Shown here in pieces: positions 1 to 64,000 of a stretch of 64,000 nt of DNA. The DNA is taken from positions 12,154,263 to 12,218,262 of the forward strand of contig CM119264.1 in the NCBI GenBank assembly GCA_051294375.1, given 5' to 3'. The stretch comes from Paraspadella gotoi. Lineage: Eukaryota > Animalia > Chaetognatha. How positions within the stretch are numbered: the stretch's first letter is position 1; each line of letters starts with the position of its first letter. The translations under genes were made by a program, and so were the position numbers. Below the pieces are notes generated by a model, which did not search any database, was not told where the DNA came from, and saw nothing but the letters and a program-made list of their open reading frames with translations.

Positions 1-2216
1 TAACCTTAAGGGAGAAAAATATTTGTAAATTTAAGTCCATTTTAACGAAATATGTTTTTATACTTTTCTCTTTGATGAATACTTAATATTTACAGTTTAT
101 ACCGTAGTAATTTAGCTAAATTTTTGGCCCGTTTGATTATATCTATCGTCCCGTTGAAGTCGTAACTAAAATTTAGCCGAGTAACAAGGTAAACAAACTG
201 AAGTGTTTCAATCTCTCGAATCTTATCGATAGTCGTCGTCGTCGTCCGCTATCACTTCTCTTCACCTCTGCCCCTCTTTGCCCGGTCTCCTCGATGACGC
301 CTTGAACTTGAGCGATCTCCTGTTGGTTCCCGACTAGCTTGTTCTTTTGTTCTTGAATCTCCTGTTGTAATTTCTCCGGCGATGGAACGATGTCCCGATT
401 GAGATTCTCCACTTCCTCCTTCAAAGTTGCCTTTCGCAATTTCAGGTCGTCGTTAGACTTTTGAAGCTCGGATGCTTCCAGCTTTAGATGACGAATCTCT
501 GGTCAGTTTTGAAACATTTTTAGAAAGTTGTAGGGTCGATGACAATGTACTATAGTAAATATGAATTAAACTAAGAGCAAAGTTTCCCTAGTCAATAGTA
601 ATCCATCTCACTTGTGTCAAGTTCGGCCTGGCTTGCTTTGAGATCATCAATGGCTTTTCGCTTGTCCTCGATCTCAGCTTTTTTGGACCGAACCAGATGA
701 ACGTTTTCTTCACGAATCTTTAGCCGATCATTGATCCACGACTTTGTTTCGTCAATTTGTTGTCGAAGTCCTTCTGACTGACTCCGAGCTTTCTTTTCGC
801 GACTACCAAATGTAAATAAAAAGAATATAAAAATCAAGTAATAAATAAAACAGATTCTACATCAATCCAGCATTATAAAAAATTGGCGATCCCGGAGTTG
901 AATACGCTCTGGAGGCTTATGGGAAAACGAAGAAAGATAAAAAAATAAATTTCGTTTCTATACGGAAAAGAAAATTTAAGACTAACAACAATTATAATAA
1001 AAACGTTGATAAGCTTCATGGGCGAAGGAATTTTTTTTTAAAATATTAGTATTTATAGTATTTTTTTTCGTTGCTTTAATAGATATTTATAAAATAACAG
1101 TTTTTATTTATGATTTTAACGATCATTTAATAATTGGGACATGTTTCGGTTTTTGTTCTTCGAACCTTCATCAGCCAGTTTTGATAGTTTTGAAAAATAT
1201 TTGGATTCTAACTTTGAGAGAAAGAGAGAGGCAATTTTAACCTTGATATCCTTTCTCTCTCTCTCCGAATTATTAAAAGATCGTTGTAATCATAAATAAA
1301 AACTTATTGTGTAAATATAATTATTATATTTTTTTATAAATTTATTAATATTAAAATATTTTTTTTAAATTTTCAATTATTATATACTTAAGCTAAACTT
1401 AAGTTTAACCCTAACTTACCCCTAATCTATTTTTAACCCTAACTTATTTTTTTTGTTATCTTACACTTATTCTTAATTTATTCTTATCCATAATTTATTA
1501 TAACCTTAATTTTTACCCAAATATATAACAAAAATAACAAATATTTAAAAATTGTGATATCTGAATTCCTTTTATTTTTTTCCTAGAAATTATCCTTTTC
1601 CGTTACATTTCTTTCGTTCCTCTTCTTTTTCCGTTAATTCTTTATGAAAAACCTTGCTCTTTGTTTTCCATATGCATCCAGAGCGTATTGATCTCCAGGA
1701 ATGCCAAAAAATTACTTGACTATATCGCTGGACATGCTGACTGTGTCCTCGCGATGTCGGCAAAAGTTAATGATGGCGCTGAGAATTTTTTCTAGACGCT
1801 GAGGATTAGGAGTGGTTATGTCGGCAAGCTTGAAGTCAGTGTAGCGACACGTGTATAAAAACCAGGACATAACCTTCGATAGGCGCAAGTACACCATAAA
1901 ATCGTTTTGAAGCTCGGGAAATGGGAGAGCGCTGTTCTCTTCGAACGTTAACATTGTGAGCTGCTCCGCCTTAAAATAAGAAGAAAGTGAGGTTGATAAA
2001 CACCCGGTAAGTTTCGAGTCTCCCACTTAGACTCGGTCTCACCCGAACGTCAAAAACGAAGCAAAGAACGTCGATGTAGATCTGTTGCCACTTGGAAGGT
2101 GTCGGTTTGCGCAGATCCGCAATAGTAATGGCCGAGGAGGGAGGGACAATCTCGTTGAATTCGCTTATGATTTCGTCCTGCTTAAGAATCGGAAAGTCGT
2201 ACTGACTTTGCGCCAT
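1..2216 (-). CDS. NUF2: Kinetochore protein Nuf2 (Ndc80 complex); multi-exon, 3' end runs off the window
   Basis: N-terminus MAQSQYDFPILKQDEII...DLRKPTP and DFKLADITTPNPQRLEKILSAIINFCRHRE match the Nuf2 CH domain. Downstream coiled-coil exons contain IVPSPEKLQ. Introns are GT-AG. Confidence 0.9.
883..1707. mobile_element. Non-autonomous inverted-repeat (MITE/foldback-like) element in a NUF2 intron
   Basis: TGGCGATCCCGGAGTTGAATACGCTCTGGAGGCTTATGGGAAAAC (from ~883) is the near reverse complement of GTTTTCCATATGCATCCAGAGCGTATTGATCTCCAGGAATGCCA (ending ~1707). An inner inverted repeat pairs ~1101-1135 with ~1268-1302. Confidence 0.7.
1132..1180 (-). ncRNA. Minimal type I hammerhead ribozyme (Penelope-like element type)
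   Basis: Minus strand reads AACUGG-CUGAUGA-A-GGUU(loop)AACC-GAAAC-AU-GUC-CCAAUU. The catalytic core boxes are intact, stem II is GGUU/AACC, stem III is the palindrome ACAUGU, the cleavage triplet is GUC and stem I is UGG/CCA. Confidence 0.8.
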
Positions 2217-2451
2217 TTTTATATATATTTATATTTATCTATAAAAGGAAAGAAGCGCAGCAAATGAAAATCAGAGAATCAAATATAAAAATTCAAAATA
2301 GATCGCCATGATTGTTGAGCATCATGTTAACAGAAATGTTTTAAAATAAGAAATAAATATGAATATTGTTCCGATTTTTAAATAAAACCGACATTATAAA
2401 TTTTTTTAGTTAAACATTGAACAAAAAAATAGATTCATTTCGAAGAAACAA

Positions 2452-2965
2452 ATGTCTACGTTGTGGCAGGATCAGACGAAGTTCAGATCAAGAATAGTTT
2501 ATTCTTCAAGAGTAATTACAAAAGTCAATAACAAAAGATGCAAGTCTAAGTGTAGCAGAATAATTTGTGGTTCATTTCAAATGAGATTGAGTTCTTCAAT
2601 CTCATTTACATATGTAGTAGTTTGGACCATTCTCATATCTTTTGATACAGTTTTCATAATAGCCTTATTTTACGGTTTTGGCAATAGTTTTAATAGGTTT
2701 TAATAATGTTTTAGTTTTCCAATTATTATTCAGATATTTCATAGTAGTATTGTTGCTTTATAAATGGAAGTATTTTTCTTGTTCTGGGAGACTGGCTCAT
2801 GTTTGATAGAAGATTGTTATTGTCAAAGGCCTAGCTATTAATCAGCTAGGATTTCAGGGTCGGTTTGAACCACTATGCCCTTTTCTTAGCTTGCCACTTA
2901 TAATATAATAACCATCATGTATCTTGTGTAATATTAATAATGTTAAGGTAGCAATAAAATAAATA
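2452..2965 (+). mobile_element. Possible decayed 3' end of a non-LTR retrotransposon
   Basis: The degenerate peptide KCSRIICGSF resembles post-RT motifs of LINE ORF2, and the segment ends in an AATAAAATAAATAA tail. Weak. Confidence 0.3.
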
Positions 2966-61700: not shown

Positions 61701-62599
61701 CTGGTCACAAGTGTACGTTGCCACCTACAACAAATTTTCTCATCTCCAATGATTTAAACTTTTTTATTCGTTATAATTAATAAAAACAAACCTGCATCAT
61801 AGGCTTAACTTCGGTGGCCCGTGTCACTATGCCGCGAACGGCAACCAATTTACCAACTCTGTCGGCCTTGACGTCACGTATAGAAGCCAACTTATGGGCG
61901 TCGGATAATTTAAAATGAACCTCGAATCGACGGAGTAATTCTGGTGGATATCGGTTCCTTTGAAAAAAAAGAAAAATAGCAAAATGAGACTTCATTATTC
62001 AAAATGATGCGCTCTTCTTTTTCTAAGGAGCTAAATATCTAACAAAAGAGCATGTTTCCGCGGAGAGAATACGGGAGGCCGTTTATTCAGGCGAGTCATT
62101 TTCCATCTTGCTCCTAAATTTGATGTCCAACAAATTCACCTTGGATCGCGAGTGGCGGAGGAGCCCGGATCTCGATGCCTCTCCTCCATCATCATTCGGT
62201 GTTGGATGTAAACGTCCAACGTGTCTTTCTCGACGACGTCTTTCGTCTTGTAGGACGGAAGAGCGTCTTGAATCACTTCGGCGAAGAGTTGCGCCTGTTG
62301 AAAACGATTTTATTTTAAACGGTAGTCAATATCACATAAGCGTTCGTTACTTTGAAAATTCATCCACTCACGAATCTATTTGCGTTTCCCTCGATGGCCT
62401 CCGCCAGATCGTCGTTACCATAGTCGACGATGTCTTGCAAATCGATGACGATCTCCACTTGCTCCCGGTGAGCCAACTTTACCATCTGGTCGTAGTACTT
62501 AAAGTTTTTTCGACCTGTCCCATCGTCGGGAGAAGTGTACTCCTCCAGAAACTGACGGATCTTTTCTTTGTCGTCATCATAATCCCGACGACCCGACAT
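58792..62599 (-). CDS. MCM7: DNA replication licensing factor MCM7, multi-exon
   Basis: [33 protein letters not shown]; Walker A GDPGVAKSQLL; Walker [10 protein letters not shown]; Arg finger [20 protein letters not shown]. Confidence 0.97.
60511..60885. mobile_element. MITE in an MCM7 intron (TA-flanked TIRs)
   Basis: GCTTCATATTAGAAAATGATAC...GAATCGGTTC on the left versus GAACCGATT...GTATCATTTTCTAATATGAAGC on the right, with TA on both flanks. Confidence 0.8.
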
Positions 62600-62787
62600 T
62601 TTCAAGATGGGACGCGATTAGTCAAACAACTTTGAAGAAAAAACAAGCAACGTAAAAGTAAACAATGACGAAAATAAAAAATATTGATCACAGTCAAGCT
62701 TTATAAAATTTTATGGCGCCACCGTCCTCAAACTTTCAAAAAGATAATTGAAAATAACAGTTCTGGTTTCTTCATCAGCTCGTTTTT

Positions 62788-64000
62788 TCATTTAAAGAAC
62801 GCGGAGAGTTTTCTTTGGCCTTCCACCAATGGAATTATCTTTCTCCGCGCCTTGGGTTTGTCTTTTTTCGCCAACTTGGGCGCTCTTGGGACGGGTTTGG
62901 CTTTATCATCGTCAGGGACGAGGATCGAGTTTTTGTTTTCAAAATCGTCGTCGTCGTCTCTCGGTCGCTTGGCTCGCGAAGTCGTTTGCGTGTCGGCGCT
63001 TGCGGACTTCGTCGCTTCCCTCACCTCAGCCTCTTCAAACTTGGTTCGAGACATCATCAAGGTGGGCCCTTGTGCCGTCGCTGCCGGATCATTTTCGTCG
63101 TCCGCGAGGGGGGCGCAGGGCGGACTATCTGTCATGGCCCACGACCTCGCCGATTCGAACTTTCGGTTAAGCGGGTTACGTTCGCGAAGGACGGGGCTTT
63201 GATGCGACTGCGACGACAACTCTCGAGGCCGCTGGAGAGTTGGAGATTGCTCGACTTTGGGAGACTGAAATTGCGACCAGAGTGAAGGAAACCGAACCGG
63301 CGTCGCGGTCGACGAGTACGCGTCGTCGAGTATGCCACCTGTCGAGTTAAGCCATCAGTTGACTAGAGAACGAAAAGTGAATCCCAGAAAAAAAAATCAA
63401 TTACCCGCAGTCATAGTTTTATCGAATAAAGAAGCCCCAGCCTCTTCATCCATAATAAATTTCAAAAGTTCCTTCGTCTTCGATCCACAAACTCCTAGTT
63501 TTTTCTTCGTTTCATCGCCGCTCGATGGCAGCGATACATTTAAAATCGACTTATGCAGTTTAAAATGGCCGTGCTTGACAAGAATCATTTCCTAAACAAA
63601 CATTATCTAGAACATTACAAAAATCGAAAATTGTATTGTTCACATAAAATTTGCAAGTCGTTTCTTACTCTGATTTTCTTCGCAGCTTTCTCTACGCTGG
63701 TGATTCTTAATCGATTGTCGCGACTTTTGCAAATTGAATTTTTCAGAAGGTTAACGACTCTTATTAAACTTTTTTCAGGTTCCTTGTCTCCTTCTTCAAT
63801 TACGTTCTGACACTGAACATAAATTAATCAAGGAAACGGATAAGCTGACGTATTTCGAATCAGGACGTCGTTAAATTTGACAAACCTTTTCGATGAGATC
63901 AACGAGTTCGGAAAGACCCTTTACGTGAAGATTGAGAGGGCAATCAACTCCTGCTTGATAACCGTTTCCACCCAGCTTGATGCGAACAACAAATGAGCTT
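62788..64000 (-). CDS. PARPBP: PCNA-associated recombination inhibitor PARI (PARPBP); 3' part only, 5' end outside the window
   Basis: SFVVRIKLGGNGYQAGVDCPLNLHVKGLSELVDLIE resembles the PARI motif SFIRTIELGGKGY...LRTHVKGLSNFINFID. The extreme C-terminus carries a PIP box, GQRKLSAFFK*. Confidence 0.8.

Follow-up and report, generated by a model that had tools for sequence, protein, structure and literature searches.

Co-oriented genes and probable spliced-leader operons in a 64-kb window of a chaetognath genome

Gene Content and Orientation

The window analyzed here is the whole stretch of 64,000 nt taken from contig CM119264.1 (positions 12,154,263 to 12,218,262, forward strand) of assembly GCA_051294375.1, which is filed under the chaetognath Paraspadella gotoi. 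Stop-to-stop open reading frames (ORFs), hand-built splice models and Pfam searches revealed 13 host genes, every one of them encoded by the minus strand: PARPBP comes first, followed by MCM7, VPS33, SELENOS, FAK, spectrin, ANAPC2, SR protein, PCNA, sororin, RAD51, TPX2 and NUF2 (Table 1). These genes likely form about five transcription units, the boundaries of which we infer, and three of the units are likely operons resolved by spliced leader (SL) trans-splicing.

Pfam supported 11 of the 13 genes at or above the cut-off, at the level of the family alone; within their families we take the respective genes to be MCM7, VPS33, SRSF3/7-like, RAD51 (not DMC1) and beta-heavy spectrin. The splice joints obtained by comparison with X1, a set of contigs that is not on record as RNA and whose RNA nature is a guess of the software, agree with this orientation, as all 15 joints displayed (31 in total) read CT..AC, i.e., GT-AG introns of the minus strand. 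Eight of the 13 genes belong to families with established roles in the cell cycle or DNA repair, while the other five have no relation to the cell cycle. A preliminary description of this DNA, which reported 13 of 13 genes on the minus strand and eight cell-cycle genes, is thus borne out on the first point by the gene models and the joints and on the second by the count, given what is known of these families.

Table 1. Coordinates of genes and candidate features in the window. Unit letters denote candidate transcription units; gaps run from the stop codon of the upstream gene to the ATG; UTR, untranslated region; X1, contig set guessed to be RNA.
Feature	Positions	Strand	Upstream gap (nt)	Remarks
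PARPBP/PARI, 3' part; gene continues past window end	62788..64000	-		C-terminal tail like a PCNA-interacting protein (PIP) motif; first visible gene of unit A
MCM-family gene (presumably MCM7), 733 aa, 12 introns	58792..62599	-	188	Pfam; unit A
Sec1-family gene (presumably VPS33)	55704..58573	-	218	Pfam; unit A
Selenoprotein S (SELENOS), end Gly-Gly-UGA-Gly-stop	54741..55596	-	107	Pfam; final gene of unit A
FAK (FERM, kinase, FAT)	42494..52290	-	2456 (2450 if selenocysteine is read)	Pfam; unit B; AATAAA 56 nt past stop
Spectrin with CH, SH3, spectrin repeats and PH (presumably beta-heavy type)	19307..39743	-	2750	Pfam; head of unit C
ANAPC2, 811 aa	15832..18357	-	949	Pfam; X1 contig starts at 18372
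SR protein, RRM and RS tail	14443..15083	-	748	Pfam; spliced X1 contig shared with ANAPC2
PCNA, 262 aa, 3 introns	11347..12460	-	1982	Pfam; head of unit D
Sororin (CDCA5)-like	8678..11117	-	229	Frame break within 24-bp tandem array
RAD51, 348 aa	7046..8520	-	157	Pfam; upstream gap bridged by spliced X1 contig
TPX2, 418 aa	5055..6813	-	232	Pfam; upstream gap on the contig that also bridges sororin-RAD51
NUF2; runs to window start	1..2216	-	2838	Pfam; unit E or tail of unit D; 3' end undefined in window
TPX2-NUF2 gap	2217..5054	.		Pieces of several X1 contigs; no single listed contig across
Pyrimidine tract + AG (12498-12497), candidate trans-splice acceptor	12497..12510	-		36 nt before PCNA ATG; spliced contig from 12496
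Two E2F-like sites (12632-12639, 12678-12685), candidate unit D promoter	12632..12685	.		CCAAT box just upstream; pattern settled on once the sites had been noticed
Candidate nested coiled-coil gene in spectrin intron 36496-34311	34427..35019	+		Splice-like borders; further candidate exon 35975-36175
Two candidate nested ORFs in spectrin intron 26717-25696	25823..26592	+		Splice-like borders

Intergenic Gaps and Candidate Operons

In P. gotoi nearly half of the genes are trans-spliced, and 5,061 genes lie in 2,151 candidate operons, which are defined by gaps of less than 250 bp (PMC12460157). Six of the 12 gaps in the window (107-232 nt) fall below this limit, and the strand is the same throughout. 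With such gaps the orientations are not independent, so that the probability of 1 in 4096 given in the preliminary description is invalid and overstates the surprise; about five units on one strand correspond to 1 in 16, and the seven units obtained under the strict rule to 1 in 64. Since the genes of an operon must share a strand, most of the co-orientation is explained. The likely operons are PARPBP-MCM7-VPS33-SELENOS (unit A), spectrin-ANAPC2-SR protein (unit C) and PCNA-sororin-RAD51-TPX2 (unit D), the last consisting of cell-cycle genes only and perhaps including NUF2. FAK and NUF2 would either stand alone or be attached to their neighbors through repeat-expanded gaps.

We favor, with a probability of roughly 0.75, an arrangement in which a promoter above each unit yields a polycistronic pre-mRNA, from which the mRNAs are separated by 3'-end formation and SL addition. 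A single upstream promoter per operon would give rise to the pre-mRNA, a gap of 107-232 nt would be mostly the 3' UTR of the upstream gene, closing at a pyrimidine-AG acceptor, and the mRNAs would be released by 3'-end formation and by addition of the leader at acceptors located 10-80 nt above the respective ATG. Candidate acceptors lie at 12497 and 18373 and near 62630, 58631, 55612, 11128, 8597, 6849 and 2239, though good acceptors are also common in background windows (see below). In five of the six short gaps, any donor-like site is weaker than the weakest real donor. Neither AATAAA nor ATTAAA was found in the six short gaps, which hold too few bases for this to mean much.

Contig Cover Across the Gaps

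The X1 contigs were compared with the lower part of the window. A contig across two genes denotes continuous RNA cover rather than a single molecule or transcript, and this cover carries no strand. Three gaps are spanned by single contigs. An intron-free contig of 4185 nt, which retains both gaps, connects sororin, RAD51 and TPX2, and a spliced contig of 4274 nt joins ANAPC2 and the SR gene across their 748-nt gap; no other gap among the six longer ones is bridged by a single contig. In addition, the spectrin contig extends the 3' UTR of this gene to 18462, and its end lies 89 nt from the start of the ANAPC2 contig. Contig cover was found in 30 of 30 bins of positions 1-20000, the TPX2-NUF2 gap included, and unspliced contigs lie above PCNA (12600-13082 and 13123-13450). 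Cover is absent at 12497-12599 and 11050-11258, and such holes count as no evidence. Introns offer no silent control because the assembly drops intron-retaining paths. Contig depth (399 at PCNA, 4-8 upstream of it, 30-120 in the TPX2-NUF2 gap) is not suited to ranking expression and was not taken as a measure of it.

At 11050-11258, a segment comprising the PCNA 3' UTR and the start of sororin, X1 and the window do not match and loose ends occur on both sides. We read this as a structural polymorphism within the gap of a likely operon.

Spliced Leader Evidence and Relatives

A clade-specific pattern at the start of PCNA had a single match, a contig from a relative (L001) whose first bases are identical over 16 of 16 nt to the 3' end of chaetognath SL2 (0 of 200 shuffles), the sequence of which is printed in PMC2481426. 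In L001 the leader end is followed by an intronless PCNA and, 793 nt downstream, by a co-oriented CDK2; the arrangement as a whole (1442-3994 of L001) likely represents a second cell-cycle operon. Its PCNA is 90% identical to that of the window, and in a quick tree the two group at a value of 100 in the Shimodaira-Hasegawa-like approximate likelihood ratio test (SH-aLRT); the PCNA of the window therefore groups with a sequence bearing a chaetognath-specific leader. For PCNA exon 1, six relatives were found at 77-87% identity, followed by a drop to 67%, and for ANAPC2 the identity to named proteins does not exceed 52-53%; three others reach 75-80%, and a quick tree places the protein on a long protostome stem. 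Judging from these sequences, the window is likely chaetognath, and its genes would be trans-spliced as well; an origin from a nematode or a tunicate was rejected in view of the leader match and the trees.

The PCNA and ANAPC2 contigs both start on the first base behind an AG, against a background AG frequency of 5.6%. The assembly graph would branch at the AG if the spliced-on partner ended in a base other than G; 25 of 29 cis-exons of the window end in G, and published leaders end in A. Contig starts of this kind are a weak hint of trans-splicing, obtained in one study. The SL2 16-mer of L001 is absent upstream of the genes of the window.

A number of observations weigh against the explanation by SL operons. 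No leader was seen on the X1 contigs, neither at three loose ends in one comparison nor among the six displayed of 157 loose ends in a second comparison. A position weight matrix for acceptors, built from 29 introns, does not discriminate, as equally good scores occurred in 59% of 73 background windows, and both contig-start AGs lie outside the top two scorers. Owing to the mismatch between X1 and the window, the PCNA-sororin gap is left unbridged. Moreover, the contigs provide RNA cover rather than a single transcript, from a set whose RNA status is itself a guess, and the clade placement comes from one SL-bearing contig together with quick trees that include no named chaetognath. Finally, E2F-like sites, discussed below as part of a candidate promoter, are not enriched over the window as a whole (23 against 25.6 expected).

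Clustering of Cell-Cycle Genes

The strongest clustering signal comes from unit D, where four proliferation genes lie side by side ahead of NUF2. Two E2F-like sites, against 0.10 expected (2 of 1000 shuffles), occur within 300 nt upstream of the acceptor of PCNA, for a pattern that was selected after the sites had been seen; none was found above the five other unit heads tested. Unit D would form a co-regulated proliferation module with an E2F/CCAAT promoter placed 135-200 nt above this acceptor. The preliminary description had proposed a proliferation neighborhood that included a PCNA-PARI-RAD51 trio. The neighborhood holds for the PCNA-sororin-RAD51-TPX2(-NUF2) unit, but the trio does not, since PARPBP belongs to another unit, about 50 kb away from PCNA and RAD51, and a physical cluster of the three genes is ruled out.

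Microsynteny in relatives, which had been suggested as a check, did not reveal conserved cell-cycle neighbors of PCNA in L001 or in a 158-kb bacterial artificial chromosome (BAC) of Spadella (Table S5, PMC2481426). PCNA is accompanied by sororin in the window, by CDK2 in L001 and by RPS14 upstream in Spadella, where its flanks are RPS14 on one side and a transposon and then TXNDC13 on the other. The PCNA copies compared among the three records may be paralogous. As the neighbors are not conserved, any functional grouping has been rebuilt rather than inherited.

It is possible, at somewhat less than even odds, that the density of cell-cycle genes is a tail event, with operons enriched for proliferation and germline genes, shuffled membership and no need for selection on co-regulation. 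Eight cell-cycle genes out of 13 are expected 0.0008, 0.05 and 3.4 times per genome at assumed baselines of 5, 8.5 and 15%, respectively. Operons of Oikopleura lean toward housekeeping genes and toward genes of the cell cycle and the germline and are nevertheless loosely related and scrambled (PMC11067885), and 39% of Macrostomum neoblast genes are found in operons (PMC8629364); such trends raise the cell-cycle baseline. The different partners of PCNA in the three records and the five genes unrelated to the cell cycle point in the same direction. On the other hand, one unit holds an unbroken row of four or five core proliferation genes, seven core genes out of 13 are expected only 0.0007-0.2 times per genome at assumed baselines of 3-7%, PCNA has a cell-cycle partner again in L001, and among the unit heads tested E2F-like sites occur above unit D only. 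A literature search aimed at cell-cycle and germline enrichment of trans-spliced operons gave no match, nor did one aimed at a eukaryotic operon with PCNA, RAD51 and trans-splicing.

Larger One-Way Blocks and Other Explanations

The preliminary description had also inferred a higher-order directional cluster. To stand in for a permutation of the genome, 300 genomes of 21,072 genes were simulated with the published gene and operon counts of P. gotoi. Runs of at least 13 genes occurred 2.5 times per simulated genome under independent orientation and 12.4 times under the published operon counts, in the latter case at 0.13% per position. Given about 12 such runs per genome, one window of this kind belongs to the expected background.

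A further level may be added to the explanation by SL operons, namely one-way blocks of 50-150 kb that would hold the housekeeping genes of chaetognaths and exceed the length predicted from short-gap operons. Leader addition would salvage read-through from upstream units, and head-to-tail order would thus be favored. We regard this proposal as tentative and on balance unlikely. Of the rows given with an orientation for the Spadella BAC, 19 of 23 are on plus and the four on minus are transposon rows (three labeled, one an unlabeled twin), while the named host genes are plus in 14 of 14 cases over about 120 kb, a run with a probability of 0.075% per position at the published operon rate. The contig cover throughout positions 1-20000, with the TPX2-NUF2 gap and the unspliced contigs above PCNA, is consistent with such blocks, as is the inflation of operon gaps by repeats in Macrostomum (PMC8629364). 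However, the BAC had been chosen on account of its co-oriented clusters, out of a pool of unstated size, and predictions without a SwissProt match are not listed, so that it provides a lead only. The window was likewise selected for co-orientation, the dozen or so runs per genome are expected regardless, and the strandless cover in the gaps may stem from repeats, UTRs or DNA. The directional cluster thus has independent but selected support from Spadella, set against a number of long runs that chance and operons already provide. No paper on co-oriented blocks in chaetognaths was among the matches listed, and the terms "orientation," "strand," "cell cycle" and "E2F" are absent from the main text of PMC12460157, the supplementary tables of which may list these operons and bear on the GO terms. 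If one-way blocks were in excess across the genome, they would amount to a layer of gene order that was not found in this main text. Less likely still is the combined picture of such blocks as operons of operons, with functionally coherent, E2F-driven proliferation operons built repeatedly from different partners.

Separate promoters for each gene of a compact genome, with the bridging contigs produced by read-through, overlapping UTRs or assembly joins, appear improbable to us. No leader was seen directly in X1, and contigs are unable to show transcript ends; yet two UTRs and a promoter would all have to fit into 107-232 nt, PCNA is trans-spliced in the nearest relatives, and operons with gaps of the same size are documented in the phylum. 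We likewise find little to recommend a single promoter transcribing most or all of the 64 kb in the manner of kinetoplastids, for which the 13 co-oriented genes, the lack of plus-strand genes between units and the contig cover in the two long gaps compared would speak, since no listed contig crosses any of the four gaps of 2.0-2.8 kb, motifs of a candidate promoter lie above PCNA, AATAAA stands right behind FAK, and in P. gotoi the longest operon reported has nine genes and both distal and proximal open chromatin exist (PMC12460157). The earlier suggestion of long-range polycistronic transcription is retained in the form of likely short-gap SL operons, and a single transcript of 64 kb is unsupported.

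Comparison With Known Systems

SL operons have been known in arrow worms since 2008, and the basic arrangement is not new. In Spadella cephaloptera, three bases separate the poly(A) site and the acceptor in the RPS14-PCNA operon (PMC2481426), and leader genes of chaetognaths lie within the 5S cluster (PMC2566580). The operon genes of P. gotoi concern the metabolism of nitrogen and of protein, and operons are enriched among germline markers (PMC12460157). The window resembles these systems in its co-oriented genes less than 250 nt apart, the presence of PCNA in a likely operon, the housekeeping or germline type of its genes and the SL2 end found on relatives; the partners of its PCNA are different ones, with no neighbor in common with the Spadella BAC or L001.

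Head-to-tail, SL-resolved genes with a trend toward cell-cycle, germline or stem-cell functions are also found in Oikopleura dioica and Macrostomum lignano (PMC11067885, PMC6389100, PMC8629364). E2F1 is present at maternal promoters in Oikopleura (PMC6389100), gaps are inflated by repeats in Macrostomum, and membership is labile in both. In contrast to the window, these animals belong to other phyla with other leaders, and their operons are functionally loose, whereas unit D consists entirely of cell-cycle genes. A general question is whether operons in animals assemble genes of like function or arise neutrally as a by-product of trans-splicing. Unit D, whose four or five genes serve only replication, cohesion, repair and the spindle and lie below a candidate E2F promoter, together with the PCNA-CDK2 pair of L001, makes this question directly testable in chaetognaths.

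Kinetoplastid directional gene clusters are long one-way runs of unrelated genes that are trans-spliced. The window differs from them in its many cis-introns, the candidate promoters between its units and the gaps of 2-2.8 kb, which are covered at most in pieces (two of the four were compared with X1, and both are covered in pieces and unbridged). If the one-way blocks were real, they might be closer to the directional clusters of trypanosomes than to any animal layout described, a parallel that we consider doubtful.

Identity of Individual Genes and Local Features

Sororin had no Pfam match. Its C-terminal 190 aa retrieved Atlas clusters bearing Sororin_C at ranks 1, 3 and 7 (scores 0.91, 0.89 and 0.88), and a stretch that we take to be a KEN-like motif lies in frame near 10784. 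The 24-bp tandem array of this gene (10097-10569; about 20 copies of a serine-proline-rich unit of 8 aa) contains indels that leave a net one-base frame offset, due either to an assembly error or to a variable array. In the case of PARPBP, Pfam, the word-index search and Atlas gave no support (nothing, or unrelated HAD clusters). A phmmer search with one 38-aa exon of this gene returned nine matches, the top one being an unrelated repeat protein; among the seven examined, two are named PCNA-interacting partner-like, and both end in a PIP-like tail resembling that of the window gene. At the end of SELENOS (54530-54749), an in-frame UGA is followed by Gly and TAA, and a stretch near 54580-54535 presumably resembles a selenocysteine insertion sequence (SECIS), for which Rfam gave no match. 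At the gathering threshold Rfam returned 0 matches in the window, with no call of an SL RNA gene, small nucleolar RNA or SECIS.

Plus-strand genes had been described as nested in introns only. Their location in two spectrin introns is confirmed, but they are candidate ORFs for which no Pfam family was found above the cut-off (25823-26592, 34427-35019 and 35975-36175), possibly lineage-specific genes. A two-exon model for the pair of ORFs in 25823-26592 ran into an early stop and was rejected. Among 20 further ORFs from gaps and introns, Pfam matches above the cut-off were limited to spectrin and Sec1 exons.

Behind the TPX2 stop, a decayed frame at about 4459-5000 resembles the reverse-transcriptase tail of a retroelement without long terminal repeats, with no Pfam match; it may have lengthened the TPX2-NUF2 gap. 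A family of short interspersed repeats occurs in gaps and introns (13532-13843, 23917-24013, 46234-46350, 49441-49880 and 57581-57914), and X1 contig depth is very high at 13341-14007, where one of its members sits. Finally, a second, AT-rich repeat is common to the FAK-spectrin gap (41027-42112), where it accounts for 814 of 2750 nt, and to a FAK intron (48739-49324).

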